From Psychrobacter cryohalolentis K5 (GTDB lineage: Bacteria > Pseudomonadota > Gammaproteobacteria > Pseudomonadales > Moraxellaceae), in NCBI RefSeq assembly GCF_000013905.1, contig NC_007969.1, positions 2,310,001 to 2,342,000 of the forward strand: a stretch of 32,000 nt of DNA, written 5' to 3'. Under the pieces are notes generated by a model. It made no database searches. It saw only the letters and a list, made by a program, of their open reading frames with translations, and had not been told where the DNA came from. The position numbers and the translations under genes were made by a program. Below are positions 613 through 17,127 of the stretch, piece by piece (the first letter of the stretch is position 1; each line of letters opens with the position of its first letter).

Positions 613-2973
613 TTACGCTTTTGTTAGACGATCTGCTTTAGTGTGGGAGTCTGATACGGTATTATTCAGCTCAACCTTTGTCTTAAAACGCGTTAAACGC
701 AGCGCATTCATCAATACAGAAATTGAGCTAAGCGCCATAGCGGCAGCGGCAATCATAGGATTCAAAAAGCCAAAAGCAGCGAGCGGAATACCAAGGCAAT
801 TATAAATAAAGGCAAAAAACAGATTTTGTTTGATATTACGCAGCGTGGCATTCGCAATTTTTTGCGCTGCGTCGATATGCATCAGCGACTCACCCATCAA
901 GCGCGCAGAGGCACTATGTTGGGCGACATCCGTGCCTTCAAACATGGCAAAGCTGGCATCGGCAGTTGCCATCGCTGGTGCATCATTGACCCCATCTCCT
1001 GCCATAGCGACTTTATGACCCGCTGTTTGCAGTAGAGCAATTTGGCTGGCCTTGTCACGTGGACTCATCTTTCCATACGCTTTTTCGATACCAAGCTGTC
1101 CGGCAACGTGATCGACGACAGATTGTTTGTCACCACTCATCAAAATAACATTAATACCCGCATCTTGTAGCGCAGTAATTGCCTGCGGCGTATCTGATTT
1201 TAAGTCATCCGCTAAAGCAAATGCGCCTAGTGCTTCATCGTTAATACTAATCGCAACAGTACTGGCAATTTGCCATACCTTTGGCATCAATTTAGGCAAT
1301 ACAAGATTGGCAAACTCTGCTGTGCCAACCTTTACCACACCTAAGCCTTCAATATTTGCCTGTATACCTGCGCCTTTGATAACGCTGATATCAGACACAT
1401 CGAATAAGGATAAACCACGTGCTGTCGCTGCATTGACCAAAGCAGTTGCAAGCGGATGACTGGCATGTACTTCAATACTTGCGGCAATCTGTAGTACATC
1501 ATCAACCGCTATTGATTTATCAACCATAACTTCATCGACGATGGTCGGTTTGCCAATGGTTAAGGTACCCGTCTTATCGAGCACTACTATATCGATATTG
1601 CCTGCCGCTTCTAGGCTTTGCGCATCTTTAAACCAAACACCGTGACGCGCAGCCACGCCCATACCTGCCATGATTGCGGCTGGTGTCGCCAAACCAAGCG
1701 CACATGGACAAGCAATGACCAATACAGATACTGCGTGCATCAAAGCCGTATCGAGCATACCGGTTAGCCACCACGTCACACCAAAGGCAACCAGTGCAAT
1801 TACTACCACAACGGGCACAAAGACCGCAGTGACTCTATCAGCAAGGCGTGCCAAATTGGCTTTTGAGCCTTGGGCATCGCTGAGGGCTTGTACCATATCA
1901 CCAAGTTTAGTATCGCTACCCTTGGCATTGACGCGGTATAACAAGCTACCGTTTTCGACCAAGGCACCCGCTAATAATCCATCGCCTACTTCTTTCTTAA
2001 GCGGTACTGACTCACCGGTTAAATGACTTTCGACACACCAGCCAGCACCATCGATGACCGTACCATCGGTTGCAACGCGGCTTCCTTGCTTAGCACGCAA
2101 GATATCACCCACTTGTACCTCTTTGAGAGCGATATTTTTAAACTCACCATTTGGCTGCTGTTGCTCAACTTCGTCTGGTGTCAGCGATAATAGTAAATCA
2201 ATACTATTCAGACTGTGCTTTTTAGTGCGCTCTTCAAGGTATTTACCCGTGCGCACAAAAGCAATAACCATCACACCTGCTTCAAAATATACCGCAGGAC
2301 TGCCACTCGCACCATGACCGCCAGTATGCCCACTTTGCAACAGACTATTTAAGCTACCATCACCATGGGTCAGCCAAAGATACGTTGAATATGCCCAAAT
2401 GGTTACCGTACCGATGACGACCAATACGTCCATATTGGCAAGACCGCCTCTAATAGACGCCCAAGCACTTTTATAAAATGGTAAAGCAAATCCAAACTGT
2501 ACAATGGTCGCTAATATGAATTGCATCCAAACCGGTGGCATCCATGCCATACCCTGCCCAAAGAGCATACCTGCCATACCAATTAAAAACGGCACCAAAC
2601 AGACCCATAGTCCAATCAAACGCCATGGATACTGAGTGCTTGCATCCTCACCTTTTTGAGCAAACAAGCTATCAGCCGCCTGCAAATTGGCGACAAAACC
2701 CGTTTTGTTGACCCATTCCGTCACCTGCTCTGCCGTCGTCTGTGTCGGATCATAATCCACATTGGCGGTCTCGCCTGCGAAGTTCACGCTGACCTCATAG
2801 ACTGATGGCTTTTTATTCAAAACCTTTTCAATCCGTGATGCACAGGCCTGACACGTCATACCCTCTATCGCCAGCTGCAAGTGCGCACGCTGCGGCGTAA
2901 GCGGGGTATTAGACTGAATATCAGTCTCTACATCATAAGAATTATGGGTATCGGTATGGGTAGAATCATTCAT
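613..2973 (-). CDS. copA: Copper-translocating P1B-type ATPase
   Basis: 786-aa ORF with one N-terminal HMA domain (GMTCQACASRIE), a CPC transmembrane metal site (ACPCALGLATP), the DKTGT phosphorylation motif (LDKTGTLT) and the GDGVNDAP hinge. A His/Thr/Asp-rich leader (MNDSTHTDTHNSY) precedes the HMA domain. Confidence 0.95.
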   Translation of the reverse strand: MNDSTHTDTHNSYDVETDIQSNTPLTPQRAHLQLAIEGMTCQACASRIEKVLNKKPSVYEVSVNFAGETANVDYDPTQTTAEQVTEWVNKTGFVANLQAADSLFAQKGEDASTQYPWRLIGLWVCLVPFLIGMAGMLFGQGMAWMPPVWMQFILATIVQFGFALPFYKSAWASIRGGLANMDVLVVIGTVTIWAYSTYLWLTHGDGSLNSLLQSGHTGGHGASGSPAVYFEAGVMVIAFVRTGKYLEERTKKHSLNSIDLLLSLTPDEVEQQQPNGEFKNIALKEVQVGDILRAKQGSRVATDGTVIDGAGWCVESHLTGESVPLKKEVGDGLLAGALVENGSLLYRVNAKGSDTKLGDMVQALSDAQGSKANLARLADRVTAVFVPVVVVIALVAFGVTWWLTGMLDTALMHAVSVLVIACPCALGLATPAAIMAGMGVAARHGVWFKDAQSLEAAGNIDIVVLDKTGTLTIGKPTIVDEVMVDKSIAVDDVLQIAASIEVHASHPLATALVNAATARGLSLFDVSDISVIKGAGIQANIEGLGVVKVGTAEFANLVLPKLMPKVWQIASTVAISINDEALGAFALADDLKSDTPQAITALQDAGINVILMSGDKQSVVDHVAGQLGIEKAYGKMSPRDKASQIALLQTAGHKVAMAGDGVNDAPAMATADASFAMFEGTDVAQHSASARLMGESLMHIDAAQKIANATLRNIKQNLFFAFIYNCLGIPLAAFGFLNPMIAAAAMALSSISVLMNALRLTRFKTKVELNNTVSDSHTKADRLTKA

Positions 2974-12252: not shown

Positions 12253-13026
12253 ATGACCATAAACCAAGAAAATACATCCATACCTAAAACTACTTCTAAT
12301 TTGCAATCTGAGCCTTCAACTACAGTAGGGAGTCAATCTGTAATAGATTCTGAAAATAGCAGTAGTAATGATAGCGTTGATATCATTTCTATCACCCAAC
12401 TCAGCACGCCACTAAAGGTAGATTTATCGCCTATTTTTGATTTCTTGGGCGCACGAACCTCACAAGCTTGGGTCAACGCCGCTGTTAATAACTTACCACT
12501 GATTATTCAAGACCATGCCAATTGTGAAAAAAAGGCCGCCGGTACCGCGATGAATCTCATCTTTCGCTATGAGTTCTCTTATGATTTACAGCGTAAATTG
12601 GCACAATTGATACGTGAAGAAATGCTGCACTATGAGCAAGTGCTCGGCATTATGAATGAGCGCGGGCAAGCATGGAAATATCTAAGTGCTGGACGCTATG
12701 CCAAAGGGATGCTAAAACACAAGCGTACTTATGAACCCGCTGCAATGGTAGATGTGCTGATTATTGGTGCATTTATCGAGGCACGTTCTTGTGAGCGTTT
12801 TGCGGCACTTTCTGAGGTTATCAATGATGAGCGTTTGGCAAAATACTATCGTTATTTATTAAAATCAGAAAGCCGTCATTTTGAAGATTATTTGGCACTA
12901 GCGCAGTCATTGTCTGATGACAGTATCGATGAGCGTGTGGCATTCTTTAAAGAAGTAGAAGCAGAGCTGATATCAACTCCAGATACTGAGCTGCGCTTTC
13001 ATAGCGGCGACCCTATTGCTCTCTAA
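12253..13026 (+). CDS. miaE: tRNA-(ms2io6A37)-hydroxylase, with a polar N-terminal extension of about 55 aa
   Basis: Di-iron ferritin-like motifs: HANCEKKAAGTAM, REEMLHYEQV, IEARSCERFAAL, SESRHFEDYLALA. These are collinear with Salmonella MiaE as I recall it. The start is uncertain because the SD is weak, but there is no internal Met before the conserved core. Confidence 0.85.
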   Translation: MTINQENTSIPKTTSNLQSEPSTTVGSQSVIDSENSSSNDSVDIISITQLSTPLKVDLSPIFDFLGARTSQAWVNAAVNNLPLIIQDHANCEKKAAGTAMNLIFRYEFSYDLQRKLAQLIREEMLHYEQVLGIMNERGQAWKYLSAGRYAKGMLKHKRTYEPAAMVDVLIIGAFIEARSCERFAALSEVINDERLAKYYRYLLKSESRHFEDYLALAQSLSDDSIDERVAFFKEVEAELISTPDTELRFHSGDPIAL

Positions 13027-13081
13027 TTTATTAAATCTATAGTGAGTTCAATATAAAAGAGTTACGCTCAGAATAGCATTA

Positions 13082-13151
13082 TGCTGGGATAAATTTCTCT
13101 CGCTTGCTATGCGCTTCGCACTCCAGAGGCTTCGAAAAATTTATCCCAGCA
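13082..13151. repeat. 70-bp element with perfect 15-bp terminal inverted repeats (REP/MITE-like or structured 3' UTR)
   Basis: TGCTGGGATAAATTT (13082-13096) and AAATTTATCCCAGCA (13137-13151) flank a 40-nt G+C-richer core. It lies between the miaE stop and the terminator. Confidence 0.5.
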
Positions 13152-13197
13152 GTACGGTGTTCTTTTCAAATTGAATCGACTATGTTATCAATAAAAC

Positions 13198-13251
13198 AAA
13201 AAAAGGTGCTGCAAGCGACATATCATACGTCATTACTTGCAGCACCTTTTT
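13198..13251. terminator. Bidirectional terminator between convergent miaE and the 168-aa gene
   Basis: A-run, AAAGGTGCTGCAAG, 20-nt loop, CTTGCAGCACCTTT, T-run. Perfect 14-bp stem. Confidence 0.7.
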
Positions 13252-13277
13252 CAATTTATCTGAATTGTCTAAATGTT

Positions 13278-13784
13278 TTAAAAATCTTTTTCATCTGGAT
13301 TTAACACACGGGTTTGAGCGTTATCAATATTTGCATAGCGATTTAAATCGTTTATGCCTTCGCTTTTAGCCCCTTTATCAATAGTAGTATGTTCATTGAT
13401 ACCATCATCAAAAGCATTGCCCTCTTGATCACGGCGGTCTGGCTGACGGGCAGCATTATCGCCATCATTGACATGTTCTGAGCCTACCACACTTTCTTGG
13501 AACGTATCTGTTCCTTTATTGATAGTGGTATGATTTTCAATACTATCATCGGTAGACATCACGTTATGACTATTATGATGAATGTCTGCATGTCTATGGT
13601 CACCATGCTCGATATCATCGCTCGCATATCTAGTACCAATGACTGTTTCTTGAAATGTCTCGGTGCTTTTTTCCGTATTATCATGAGCGGCGCTGGTGTC
13701 GACCGTGCGCGCAGGCATATTATCGATATGACCATCATTACTGTTGAGAAGCGTTTTGGTTAATGCCGGATCTTTCGTTTCCAT
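13278..13784 (-). CDS. Hydrophilic His/Asp/Asn-rich protein with internal repeats; unknown function, probably intrinsically disordered
   Basis: 168 aa. AGGA SD 7 nt upstream of the ATG. No Cys or Trp, no hydrophobic segment. Repeats NTEKSTETFQETVIGT / HTTINKGTDTFQESVVGS / EHTTIDKGAK. His block EHGDHRHADIHHNSH. Confidence 0.7.
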   Translation of the reverse strand: METKDPALTKTLLNSNDGHIDNMPARTVDTSAAHDNTEKSTETFQETVIGTRYASDDIEHGDHRHADIHHNSHNVMSTDDSIENHTTINKGTDTFQESVVGSEHVNDGDNAARQPDRRDQEGNAFDDGINEHTTIDKGAKSEGINDLNRYANIDNAQTRVLNPDEKDF

Positions 13785-13889
13785 CGTAATATCCTTATTT
13801 TTAATTTATCTTTCTTGTTATTTCTTCATTACCAGACATCTGACAATGATCATTTATATGAGAGTTTAGATAGTCACGACGATGAAAAA

Positions 13890-14171
13890 CTATTCATTGC
13901 CTTTTTGCGATAAATCATAGGCGTTTAGATCGCCAACATTTTTTCCACCTGGAGGCAGATTTTCTTCTTTGCGTGGGTCAGCGTATATCTCATCCGTCTC
14001 CTGCGACTCCTGCTGAGGTCCATCAATTTCGGGTTCGTGCTTACGACCTTCATAACTGTCCGATGGATTATCTGGATGCAGCTTCGCTGGGTCGTTGACG
14101 GATACGGGCTTTTCATTATTTGGGTGCATGTTGTTAGTTTGAATATTGTCTGACTGACTATCATGTGACAT
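13890..14171 (-). CDS. Small hydrophilic acidic protein; unknown function; paralogue-like to its neighbours
   Basis: 93 aa. GAGGGA SD 6 nt upstream of the ATG. Composition D/E/N/P/S/Q-rich, no Cys or Trp. Starts MSH like the next gene. C-terminal NVGDLNAYDL resembles GINDLNRYAN of the 168-aa protein. Confidence 0.65.
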   Translation of the reverse strand: MSHDSQSDNIQTNNMHPNNEKPVSVNDPAKLHPDNPSDSYEGRKHEPEIDGPQQESQETDEIYADPRKEENLPPGGKNVGDLNAYDLSQKGNE

Positions 14172-14219
14172 GGCATTTCCCTCGCTTTAGTAGTATGGAG
14201 TTCAATAATTTTTTGCTAA

Positions 14220-14405
14220 CTATTTGTCTGTACGCAAATCATCGTTGATAAAAGAAGTTTGCTCTTCTTCTGTTAATAATTCTGGTGCATCAACTGGCTT
14301 GCCATTTTCTAAATTTCTCTCAATCTGCTGGCTGTCTGCTTGCTCAGCGGCTTTTTTGATATCTGAGCTATTATTATCTGAGCTATTATTGTTGGGGTGA
14401 CTCAT
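14220..14405 (-). CDS. Small hydrophilic acidic protein; unknown function
   Basis: 61 aa. AGGA SD 7 nt upstream of the ATG. MSHPNNNSSDNNSSD low-complexity start. NGKPVDAPELL resembles NEKPVSVNDPAKL in the 93-aa protein. Confidence 0.6.
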   Translation of the reverse strand: MSHPNNNSSDNNSSDIKKAAEQADSQQIERNLENGKPVDAPELLTEEEQTSFINDDLRTDK

Positions 14406-14588
14406 GGTGAAATCCTGTTTTCTTAGTGAGATACGTTATAAGAGTAAATGTTTATATCTATATAATTATTTATATCTACCTAATTATAAGAATAAATTTG
14501 ATACGCTCACCAGTGTACTGCCGTATAAATATGTGAATAAGTGTGAGCTTACCAGACAGTTTGTAACCAGAAAGTAGGGTTGGTAGGC

Positions 14589-14625
14589 AAAAAAAAACCA
14601 AGCACAGAGTAATCCCTATGCTTGG
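14589..14625 (-). terminator. Rho-independent terminator downstream of ppk
   Basis: Minus-strand read: CCAAGCA, 14-nt loop, TGCTTGG, followed by 9 T. About 85 nt after the ppk stop. Confidence 0.7.
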
Positions 14626-14709
14626 CTGTTATATTGTTGAAAAGAGTGGATAACATTAAAAATACTAAATGAGATTAATCAACTTAATAACCGCTAATAA
14701 ACAAGACAG

Positions 14710-16998
14710 TTATACTGGCTCGCCAACACGATTAATCACCTTTAATAAATGCTCTTGAGCAATGTGAGGCGCTTCATCCGCCGCTGGCTTGGTTCGTTGC
14801 CAGTTACCGTCACCGCTAAGTGTCCACGCTTGCTTATTGTCTTGGAGGTAACTCAACAGTCCATCTTGATAAATTTGCTTAGACAATTTTTTATCTTCAA
14901 TCGGAAACGCTACCTCTACACGGTGGAACAAATTACGATCCATCCAATCGGCGCTGCCACAGTACAAGCGCTCATCACCATCATTATAGAAGTAATAAAT
15001 GCGAGTATGCTCCAAAAAACGACCGATAACAGAACGTACGGTGATATTCTCAGACAGACCCTTCACTTGCGGAAGCAGACAGCATATGGAGCGCAAAATC
15101 AGTTCAATTTTGACCCCTGCTTGTGACGCATCATATAGTTTATCAATCAAACGACGTTCGGTTAAGGCGTTTACTTTAACAATAATATGAGCGCGCTTGC
15201 CCGCCTTGGCATGAGTAATCTCATCATCGATAAAGCTCATCAATTTATCATGCAAGGTAAATGGTGCATGCAATAGTTTTTTAAGATTAGCAGGTTTACC
15301 CATGCCGGTCAGCTCTTGGAATATCTTGTGGACGTCTTCTGAGATATCAGGATCCGCGCTGAATAATCCATAATCGGTATAGACTTTAGCATTTGCTGCG
15401 TGATAATTACCCGTGCCTAAATGCACATAACGGCGCATTTTCCCCTCTTCGCGGCGCACGATGAGCATGAGTTTAGCGTGGGTTTTGTAGCCAACAATAC
15501 CGTAGACCACTACCGCCCCTGCCTCTTGCAGATAGTTGGCAACAGCAATATTAGACGCTTCATCAAAACGGGCGCGTAACTCAATGACTGCTGTCACTTC
15601 TTTACCATTACGTGCTGCTGCGGCTAGCGCTTTGACAATTTCTGAATTGGTACCTGAACGATAAAGCGTTTGCTTAATCGCTAATACTTTTGGATCACTG
15701 GCAGCTTGCCAAAGTAAATTAATAATCGGCGAAAACGCATGGAACGGATGATGCGCCAATACATCGCCTTTACGCATGGCAGCAAACATACTGGTTGCTT
15801 TATCAAGCTTGTCGACTTCGCGGCGAAACGGTTTTGGTATCACATGCGTAAAGGGCTGATAACGCAAGGATGGGATATTAAAATCAAACAGCAAACGCGT
15901 TAAGTTGACAGGTCCATTGACGCGGTATAATTGATTGTCATGCAACTCAAACTCATTAAGCAAATAATCACTAATTGGCGTTGGGCATTCAGTAGTGACT
16001 TCAAGGCGCACTTTATCACCAAAGCGGCGGTTTTCAAGCTCACCTTCTAAGGCTTTGGCAATGTCATCAACATCATCTGCCAAGTCCAAATCCGCATTAC
16101 GCGTCAGTCTAAATTGATGACAGCCCGTGACATTCATACCAGGGAATAGCTCACCAATATGCTCATGGATAATCGCTGATAACATCACATGGTGCTCTTT
16201 GCCACCAGTCAATTCATCAGGCAGACGAATCACGCGCGGCAAGCTACGCGGCGCGGGTACGATTGCCAAATTAATATCGCGACCAAAGGCGTCTTTGCCC
16301 TCTAACGTCGCAATAAAGTTCAAGCTTTTATTCACCAAGCGCGGGAATGGATGCGCAGGATCAATGCTAATAGGTGTCAATACCGGCGATACTTGCTCAG
16401 TAAAATAGCGCTTCATCCATGCGGATTGCTCGGCATTCAACTCATCACGCTTTAAATAACGAATATCCTCAAGCGCCAGTGCTGGCAAGATATCTTCATT
16501 TAAAATACGGTATTGCTCAGCGATGGCATCATGAGTCACCGCTGATATTTCATTAAGAATTTCACTAGGACGCATACCATGTACACTGGTCGACACATCT
16601 CCCAGATTGAGCTTTTGCATGATACCAGCAACGCGAATCTCAAAAAACTCATCGATATTGGATGAAAAAATCATTAAAAAGAATAAACGCTCAAGCAAAG
16701 GATGGTGGGGATCTGCCGCTTGTGCTAAGACCCGCAGATGAAACTGCAATAAAGACAAGTCACGATTGATATAGCTGCTGGGTGAATAATTGCCATCTTC
16801 CGAGCGTTGCCAATCAATCTCGGTTAAAACTTGGTTGCCATACGGATTAATAAGGCTTTCATCGGTAGGAGGATTGCTGGTATTAATGGCACCGTCTACT
16901 TTAACTGTGTCACTCTCTCTATTGACATCATTATTCGCATCAATATATGTCTCAATAACATCAGCGGTCTTATCACTATTACTGTGCTTATTATCCAT
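14710..16998 (-). CDS. ppk: Polyphosphate kinase 1, with a polar N-terminal extension of about 70 aa
   Basis: The conserved PPK1 core starts at [19 protein letters not shown]. Contains [15 protein letters not shown] (catalytic His region) and [11 protein letters not shown]. The ORF track starts at GTG 17007. I prefer the ATG at 16996-16998 (MDNKHSN...) because a GGAG lies 10 nt upstream of it. Confidence 0.93.
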
Positions 16999-17127
16999 CT
17001 CTACCACGCTCCACTCCTATGACTGTTATCAAACTGCTATCATTTTTATATCAATCTTATCCTATCAGCATTTTTATACTATACTTTTTAAGTATTATTC
17101 TATTGTTACCGTTAATTCTAGCTACAT

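Follow-up and report, generated by a model that had tools for sequence, protein, structure and literature searches.

What are the three short genes that lie directly downstream of the polyphosphate kinase gene (ppk) in Psychrobacter cryohalolentis K5, and what would the cell use them for? We analysed a window of 32,000 nt from the K5 chromosome (NC_007969.1, positions 2,310,001 to 2,342,000; assembly GCF_000013905.1), whose numbering is used below except where the chromosome is named. Three consecutive open reading frames (ORFs), which we call A, B and C, each have a Shine-Dalgarno sequence (SD) and lie between ppk (14710-17007, itself preceded by a Transgly/mtgA-like gene) on the side of A and a convergent MiaE gene (PF06175) on the side of C. 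Our comparisons indicate that they are genuine genes under purifying selection, that they represent three families outside any described one, and that they form a single operon. On balance we consider it probable that their products act in a hydrophilin-like way as effectors of a general stress regulon of the BfmR type that operates without RpoS; which regulator is at work, what induces the operon and that the proteins protect are all things that we infer. The genes and the one repeat found within them are as follows.

14220 to 14405, minus strand: gene A, an ORF with an SD, 61 aa in K5 and 55-56 aa in most species
13890 to 14171, minus strand: gene B, an ORF with an SD, 93 aa
13278 to 13784, minus strand: gene C, an ORF with an SD, 168 aa
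13464 to 13670, minus strand: internal repeat of C, two copies of the unit K(S/G)T(E/D)TFQE(T/S)V(I/V)G

The original prediction had placed an AGGA or GAGGGA SD 6-7 nt 5' of the ATG of three minus-strand ORFs, and this holds for A, B and C, whose SDs are also conserved between species. Used as queries, the three found a match in 19-21 of 22 genomes of the same genus; 17 further genera of the order yielded no match. The gene order mtgA-ppk-A-B-C, facing miaE and a gene for a 734-aa protein, is identical in all 20 Psychrobacter loci examined, and the mtgA-ppk-A-B-C><miaE synteny extends to the Moraxella osloensis group, where the middle slot holds an unrelated gene. Order and frame are kept in those 19-21 genomes and substitutions are biased to synonymous sites, bearing out the expectation that the reading frames would be conserved in relatives: the median ratio of nonsynonymous to synonymous substitution rates (dN/dS; Nei-Gojobori method, NG86) is 0.146 for A, 0.131 for B and 0.153 for C. 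Neighbouring genes have lower values (0.041-0.063), which indicates that purifying selection acts on the trio, though more weakly than on its neighbours. This weaker constraint is regional. The N-terminal and linker parts of the three proteins have 43-48% identity and a ratio of nonsynonymous to synonymous differences (pN/pS) of 0.40-0.58, and the most conserved segments reach a mean identity of 79% with a pN/pS of 0.13 (B, residues 38-93) and an identity of 85% with a pN/pS of 0.12 (C, residues 104-126). By the same measure miaE has 83% identity and a pN/pS of 0.15, and ppk has 89% and 0.10. By these comparative criteria A, B and C are real genes.

We searched for relatives of the three proteins among known families. 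Pfam and NCBIfam scans at E <= 10 returned nothing except a chance match to ZNF380_CC (E = 0.16), the profiles for LEA_1-6, dehydrin, CsbD and KGG (PF10685) gave no match to the trio at that threshold, and profile searches against PDB sequences, PHROGs and PADLOC gave no relevant match. The earlier statement that the proteins belong to no KGG/YciG, CsbD, LEA or other named stress family is thus correct as far as Pfam and NCBIfam matches at E <= 10 can tell. In a collection of 5.8 billion proteins, C had 616 matches, B 301 and A 274, and all homologues with a name were annotated as 'hypothetical protein [Psychrobacter...]' and lacked any Pfam domain. When a profile of the C core was run with HMMER against the full set of 1.84 billion representatives, it hit only 30 clusters, 29 of which reached E <= 1e-10, and the scan showed no distant tail. 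Our literature search for the A, B and C genes found no mention of them. These data provide solid sequence-based support for A, B and C as three new conserved families outside any described family.

Their distribution was mapped in 200 genomes of the family Moraxellaceae. A and C are present in Psychrobacter (group g1, 25/28 genomes) and in the M. osloensis/Enhydrobacter group (g25, 15/20), and B is confined to Psychrobacter (27/28, against 0/20 in the M. osloensis group). None of the three was found in the 19 other genera among these 200 genomes. The linkage to ppk that had been expected across Psychrobacter and Acinetobacter is accordingly found in the former (20/20 loci) and not in the latter, which is presumably one of the 19 genera that have none of the genes. 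In M. osloensis the slot is filled by A', then an unrelated hydrophilic middle gene, then a short C' of 79-103 aa that corresponds to the C core only; the middle gene was considered as a homologue of B, and this was ruled out by an hhalign probability of 0.1%. A C' gene of the M. osloensis type, 97% identical, also occurs in a record titled Streptomyces cinereus JCM 3040 (BMPS01000004.1), for which contamination or mislabelling of the assembly is the likeliest explanation.

The proteins themselves are unusual in composition. Grand averages of hydropathy (GRAVY) of -1.42 (A), -1.66 (B) and -1.19 (C) place all three under the 0.1st percentile (-1.08) of the 2163 ORFs in this genome that are at least 150 aa long. 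They are acidic, with isoelectric points (pI) of 4.3, 4.5 and 4.6 and net charges of -8, -12 and -20, respectively. The original prediction of extreme hydrophilicity (confirmed here at GRAVY -1.19 to -1.66) and of proteins with no Cys, no Trp and no hydrophobic segment was accurate, the highest 9-residue Kyte-Doolittle window across the three being 0.16-0.40. In the alignment of 19 orthologues, A has three parts: SDIKKAAEQAD.QQIEKNL, which is prone to form a helix; a linker that varies; and T(P/S)FI....RTDK, a nearly invariant C-terminal motif. B has a variable N-terminus (residues 1-37) followed by a highly constrained stretch (residues 38-93, nt 13893-14060) that reads DSYEGRKHEP.IDGPQQ.SQETDEIYADPRKEE.LP.GGKN..DL.A.DLSQ., and its orthologue alignment has 23 invariant columns. 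C begins with a conserved M.TKDPALTKT, continues with a variable middle that is rich in indels and carries a strain-variable His block, and ends in a conserved core (residues 79-168, nt 13281-13550) with the invariants HV..D..A...DRR.Q.G..FD...N..T ... S...N.Y....NAQ.R....D. and a run, ARQPDRRDQ, that does not vary across orthologues. The two repeat copies of C occupy residues 39-56 (nt 13617-13670) and 90-107 (nt 13464-13517), the halves of the protein match each other by BLASTP at E = 2e-6, and the His-rich stretch EHGDHRHADIHHNSHN sits between the copies. The number of repeat copies is 1 to 3 depending on the species, and the His block is found in some species only.

AlphaFold runs with the orthologue alignments gave a mean confidence (pLDDT) of 61.3 for B and 56.5 for the C core, each with a predicted template-modelling score (pTM) of 0.16, and models with helical turns of only 3-7 residues; the alignments behind these predictions are shallow. 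B and the C core are thus predicted to be disordered despite their invariant residues, and the intrinsic disorder earlier proposed for all three proteins is supported for these two, which are the ones that the predictions cover.

How well does the trio fit the hydrophilins? Hydrophilins, according to criteria said to have been set out by Garay-Arroyo in 2000, have more than 6% Gly and a hydrophilicity index above 1. All three proteins have a GRAVY below -1, in line with the hydrophilicity criterion, and both formal properties are combined in B only. The trio resembles hydrophilins and LEA proteins in extreme hydrophilicity, predicted disorder, absence of Cys and Trp, short motifs set in variable sequence, and the repeat of C. 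Unlike them, it is strongly acidic, has little Gly in A, matches no LEA, dehydrin, CsbD or KGG model and contains segments constrained like those of enzymes.

The organization of the locus points to a single transcription unit, with the following elements.

14596 to 14627, minus strand: ppk intrinsic terminator (14-bp stem, then a T7 run), between ppk and the operon
14508 to 14567, minus strand: promoter/operator block, near-invariant and non-coding, about 60 nt
14532 to 14546, minus strand: 15-bp direct repeat TCACActtatTCACA, BfmR/OmpR/RstA class, in which the spacer varies and the half-sites do not
14483 to 14488, minus strand: -10 hexamer TATAAT, a conserved block of columns
13198 to 13252, no strand assigned: operon terminator after C, a strong hairpin with a U-run, common to the convergent miaE

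The block was defined by a phylogenetic footprint of 19 loci plus deep Psychrobacter lineages, and reads GTTACAAACTGTCTGGTAAG CTCACACTTA TTCACATATT TATACGGCAG TACACTGGTG. TATAAT comes about 19 nt 3' of it, and the leader of about 70 nt after the -10 is free to vary in sequence and length. Together with TATAAT the block is the sole conserved non-coding sequence of the locus: the A-B spacer ranges from 46 to 139 nt and the B-C spacer from 54 to 169 nt across species, with the SDs as their only conserved parts. The hairpin after C folds at -34.2 kcal/mol (z = -7.2), and 0 of 200 shuffled sequences fold as well. Because conserved non-coding DNA is found only 5' of the first gene, the spacers are unconserved and terminators stand on both sides, the sequence data indicate that A, B and C form one operon, with its promoter at about 14480-14567 and its terminator at about 13198-13252. 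An own promoter behind the ppk terminator had been anticipated, and the terminator, block and -10 agree with this. The -10 is good, TGGTGA 17 nt upstream of it is a poor -35 (3/6), and a sigma-70 consensus scan did not call the trio promoter, as would be expected of a promoter that needs an activator.

The long block occurs once in the genome, with no second copy found, and an Rfam scan of 13000-14800 had no match. The block was also considered as a small ORF, and this was rejected on the grounds that the 41-aa frame gains a TAG in locus L034 and that a 57-aa ORF on the opposite strand runs into the indel-rich leader. A 10-bp direct repeat, TTTATATCTA, is present twice at 14451-14478, in the leader 3' of the conserved -10; it was rejected as a regulator site, that region being unconserved in sequence and length elsewhere.

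Gains and losses of genes further define the unit. Three genomes (G229, G193 and G003) have lost A, and there the block lies directly 5' of B. In G095, a close relative (locus 2034500-2040000, about 1639-1950, minus strand), A and B are fused in frame into a 104-aa protein made of A residues 1-20 and B from about residue 10, which retains the promoter and SD of A and loses its conserved C-terminal motif. The deep-branching G223 has ppk and miaE about 160 nt apart, with the whole trio and the block absent, and G008 and G220 have A and a 112-aa variant of B, with C absent. The block thus precedes B when A is lost, drives the fusion in G095 and vanishes along with the genes in G223, which shows that it belongs to the operon and not to ppk. 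The states of gene content observed are ABC, BC, AB, AB-fusion with C, A-B'-C' and none, and such modular gain and loss argues against an obligate three-part complex.

The most informative part of the block is the direct repeat. TCACA-N5-TCACA is exact in 24 of 27 Psychrobacter loci, and its distance to TATAAT or TATACT is exactly 43 nt in 22 of these 24 and 41 nt in the other 2, whereas the ATG is anywhere between 101 and 254 nt away. Two helical turns (20 nt) 5' of the repeat there is a perfect TTACA. A genome-wide search for TYACA-N5-TYACA found it to be rare and largely outside genes (21 sites, 16 of them intergenic), and a composition-matched control motif gave 12 sites with 5 intergenic; intergenic DNA makes up 16% of the genome. 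Sites oriented towards a gene include those of a GSP26-like Pyrid_ox_like gene, of HPF/RaiA (Ribosomal_S30AE) and of a 1-Cys peroxiredoxin.

Chromosome 245627 to 245641: GSP26-like site, TTACA-N5-T(T/C)ACA
Chromosome 269109 to 269123: hpf site, a perfect TTACA-N5-TTACA
Chromosome 790480 to 790494: 1-Cys peroxiredoxin site, TTACA-N5-T(T/C)ACA

The repeats of these GSP26-like, hpf and peroxiredoxin promoters take the forms TTACAtttaaTTACA, TTACAatccgTCACA and TTACAaacNcTCACA, and they are kept in six of six Psychrobacter species (K5 and five others). In the GSP26-like case only the spacer differs between species, and the half-sites are invariant. Further sites lie 5' of genes that we take, from reading their translations, to be dnaK (3035702), a topoisomerase-IB-like gene (989769) and the serine dehydratase gene sdaA (1449112). 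The TTACA-N5-T(T/C)ACA set is a candidate BfmR-type general stress regulon in a genus that lacks RpoS. The motif itself is cleanly defined and conserved, and the connection that it makes between the trio and the hpf, peroxiredoxin and GSP26-like genes is, like the three new families, on solid ground.

Two other readings of the same DNA were set aside. The palindrome GTTACAA-N6-TTGTAAC is not enriched (5 sites against 25 for the control) and its right arm is degenerate in K5 and variable elsewhere, and a Pho-box reading (CTGTCTT-N4-CCTCACA-N4-TTCACAT) was, by inspection, weaker than the 10-bp phasing of TNACA. As a separate observation, the GSP26-like gene is duplicated in tandem (52-57% identity) in G007 (282270-283603), G003, G017 and G020, and the second copy in G003 is interrupted by a TAG stop.

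Which regulator would bind such a repeat? In Acinetobacter baumannii, phosphorylated BfmR (BfmR~P) recognizes the 15-bp direct repeat TTACA-N5-TTACA. At promoters that BfmR~P activates, this repeat is placed 5' of the -35, and it is similar to the sites of OmpR and RstA (PMC11806355). The K5 genome encodes seven OmpR-family regulators. Among them, the product of the gene at 2,855,007-2,855,705 is the BfmR orthologue, with a receiver domain matching PDB entries 5HM6/6BR7 ('BfmR') at 3.6e-67 and a DNA-binding domain matching 2NAZ at 1.6e-59; from ELVDFTSAEYDLL to ...SKGYLFVKE, its last ~78 residues, it is residue-identical to 2NAZ. No RpoS above the curated cut-off and no matching KGG protein were found in the genome. 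Both things expected of a BfmR regulon are present, namely the repeat, in which TCACA-N5-TCACA has one mismatch per half-site relative to TTACA-N5-TTACA, and a BfmR with the same DNA-recognition domain, and the BfmR orthologue is most likely the activator of the trio promoter. The trio promoter is like the BfmR~P-activated promoters omp25 and slt (PMC11806355) in having a 5-bp-spaced TTACA-like repeat upstream of a promoter with no good -35, several phased half-sites and an identical recognition domain in the regulator. It differs from them in its TCACA half-sites, in additional invariant sequence before the -10 and in being a predicted site.

The comparison with A. baumannii extends to the proteins under this control. 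Without RpoS, that species needs BfmR for its stationary-phase stress proteins, including KatE and AbsA/DtpA, and for desiccation tolerance (PMC6181384), and its dtpA-dtpB-dtpC-katE cluster is strongly BfmR-dependent and lineage-restricted (PMC13232832). AbsA/DtpA has been described as an acidophilic-repeat (KGG-type) hydrophilin (PMC6181384, PMC13232832, PMC13552118). The DtpA/AbsA-DtpB system and the trio are alike in belonging to RpoS-less Moraxellaceae, in consisting of hydrophilic disordered proteins (predicted as such for the trio) and in forming a lineage-restricted cluster. DtpA/DtpB expression is BfmR-dependent and peaks in stationary phase, and the trio promoter has the BfmR-type direct repeat. 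There is no sequence relationship between the KGG-type DtpA/AbsA and the trio, which matches no KGG model, and the trio locus lacks the DtpC and catalase partners of the DtpA-DtpB cluster. Proteins of the Escherichia coli RpoS regulon (YciG/KGG, YjbJ/CsbD, RMF and Sra) are likewise small and hydrophilic and belong to a stress regulon, as the trio is a candidate to do, but they are not homologous to it and depend on a sigma factor and not on a two-component response regulator.

Given this pattern, we propose the following scheme. An OmpR/PhoB-family activator would bind the 10-bp-phased T(T/C)ACA half-sites at the trio promoter, and the BfmR orthologue would in this way switch the operon on alongside hpf, the 1-Cys peroxiredoxin gene and the GSP26-like gene. 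Under water limitation, whether by drying, freezing, high salt or starvation, A, B and C would accumulate as hydrophilin-like protectants. Their flexible acidic N-terminal parts may provide solvation and act against aggregation, and their C-terminal segments, conserved to the degree of enzymes, may fold on binding and make sequence-specific contacts with conserved cellular targets. The protectant role is our best guess, backed by the cis-element common to the hpf, peroxiredoxin and GSP26-like genes. Ecology gives circumstantial support: Psychrobacter is noted for survival in permafrost and brine. M. osloensis is noted for desiccation tolerance (PMC7022543).

Several observations weigh against this proposal. 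On the side of the proteins, the Gly content of A (1.6%) fails the hydrophilin threshold of 6% and that of C (6.0%) is borderline, with only B (6.5%) passing; constraint on the conserved segments equals that on enzymes, which is unusual for proteins that protect only in bulk and suggests that sequence-specific binding makes up at least part of what they do; and the piecemeal loss of genes in some lineages implies that none of them is indispensable. Codon usage of the trio is only average as well (codon adaptation index at the 66th percentile, with rpsL-rpoC/tuf/dnaK as the reference set), although this measure is uninformative here, hpf, an abundant protein, being equally average. On the side of the regulator, the TCACA half-sites are each one mismatch off TTACA and lie 43 nt from the -10, and the BfmR motif does not account for the extra invariant sequence (GATACGGCAGTACACTGG) between the repeat and the -10. 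The upstream element of M. osloensis has related half-sites with a spacing that varies from 5 to 7, and K5 also encodes a true OmpR, which the half-sites fit about as well. The A. baumannii bfmR promoter has an autoregulatory cluster, whereas the K5 bfmR promoter has no clear TTACA cluster, and this internal positive control therefore failed.

The constraint on the C-terminal segments leads to the strongest alternative, in which A, B and C, expressed from the same stress promoter, are specific regulators or adaptors that use short linear motifs to bind a defined conserved target, possibly the ribosome, RNA polymerase, a protease or a chaperone, much as anti-adaptors, anti-sigma factors or helpers of hibernation factors do. 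We hold this to be a real though minority possibility. B 38-93 (79%, 0.13) and C 104-126 (85%, 0.12) are constrained like folded enzymes and the ARQPDRRDQ run is invariant, and such constraint in the absence of an autonomous fold by AlphaFold is a typical signature of folding on binding. Motif-based co-regulation with hpf and a codon usage unlike that of very abundant proteins would also fit, but abundant hpf has the same average codon usage. Moreover, the proteins share no domain with known regulators, and the independent losses, together with the replaced middle gene in M. osloensis, fit interchangeable protectants better. A combination of the two proposals can be imagined, in which the locus is an unrecognized module for anhydrobiosis or survival in the frozen state, made of three conditionally folding acidic families that are switched on by BfmR~P and dock on machines such as hibernating ribosomes. 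We offer this tentatively, as rather unlikely on present comparisons; if true, it would mean targeted protection in the dried or frozen state, unlike the bulk mode of classical hydrophilins.

Another alternative concerns the regulator: OmpR, or another member of its family, may drive the operon, with the proteins as a dedicated osmotic-stress output. A true OmpR is indeed present (429 bits against a cut-off of 331), and the 10-mers GTTACAAACT, CTCACATTTA and TTCACATATT can be likened to what we take to be the E. coli OmpR half-sites at ompF and ompC. The lack of a clear motif cluster at the bfmR promoter also favours it, as does the description of the BfmR motif itself as OmpR/RstA-like (PMC11806355). 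However, the hpf site reproduces the BfmR consensus TTACA-N5-TTACA without a mismatch, the DNA-binding domain of the K5 BfmR is residue-identical to that of A. baumannii, and hpf, the peroxiredoxin and the GSP26-like gene look like a general stress set and not an osmotic one. We regard control by OmpR as unlikely.

The original prediction had also suggested, from the neighbourhood of ppk, a role in binding polyphosphate or cations, and this found no support beyond adjacency. The idea would be that acidic, His-containing proteins buffer the Mg/Ca/Zn counter-ions of polyphosphate or join its granules; in its favour are the position directly downstream of ppk, conserved in two genera, the strongly acidic nature of all three proteins and the His-rich block of C in this strain. 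That adjacency carries no independent weight because the synteny is inherited within one clade, and the trio is not part of a ppk operon: the strong ppk terminator and a separate, regulated promoter intervene, and G223 retains ppk with neither the operon nor its promoter. Elsewhere in the family, ppk-bearing genera lack the trio. Net charges of -8 to -20 would repel polyphosphate, most species lack the His block, which falls in a region where the sequence varies and indels are frequent, and no convincing Pho box was seen in the block on inspection. All in all, a tie to polyphosphate seems very improbable. As to the flanking proteins, tblastn matches in relatives often start only at about residue 25-60 of PPK (N-terminus at 16830-17007) and at about residue 13-57 of MiaE (12253-12420), and such late starts in many species suggest that the polar N-terminal extensions of both are poorly conserved.

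Finally, the view of the trio as a tandemly amplified family of paralogous hydrophilins can be dismissed as highly improbable: beyond adjacency, similar composition and superficial likenesses in this one strain (an MSH start, KPV, DLN.Y), it finds pairwise BLASTP values of E = 1.1-11, hhalign probabilities of 0.1-1.1% among the three orthologue alignments, and likenesses that are either not conserved in orthologues or placed on differently constrained positions. The shared MSH start is specific to K5, orthologues beginning with MSxTNND, MT... or MP..., and the invariant positions of the supposedly related 'DLN.Y' tail differ (N and Y in C; L, A and L in B), which makes this likeness no more than composition gives. 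Each family is single-copy, with an internal repeat only in C, and a six-frame HMM search of the genome found no further copies of A, B or C and no A-like small ORFs (next-best E >= 0.8). By these sequence comparisons, A, B and C each represent a separate single-copy family with no relation to the other two, and neither common descent nor tandem amplification, both of which had been proposed, is borne out.

Elsewhere on the chromosome we noted other very hydrophilic ORFs with good SDs (89963-90121, 1748810-1748971, 191240-191635, 1608342-1609004 and 195015-195218). Four are acidic (52, 53, 67 and 220 aa, the 67-aa one being CsbD-like) and one is near neutral (pI 7.8, 131 aa, with DNK repeats). 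They do not match the A, B or C profiles and have no direct repeat within 260 nt upstream; the CsbD-like ORF (195,015-195,218) is accordingly separate from the trio.

Life in permafrost, sea ice and brines is modelled by Psychrobacter and survival on dry household and skin surfaces by M. osloensis, and few of the molecules that carry such non-sporulating Gram-negative bacteria through the loss of liquid water are known. The locus described here offers three short, easily synthesized and lineage-specific candidate protectants together with a compact control region of 60 bp. If the proteins do protect, they would be candidates for stabilizing dried or frozen biologics. For the biology of the family, the conserved motif points to a BfmR-type, RpoS-independent general stress regulon outside Acinetobacter and connects the trio with ribosome hibernation and peroxide defence.

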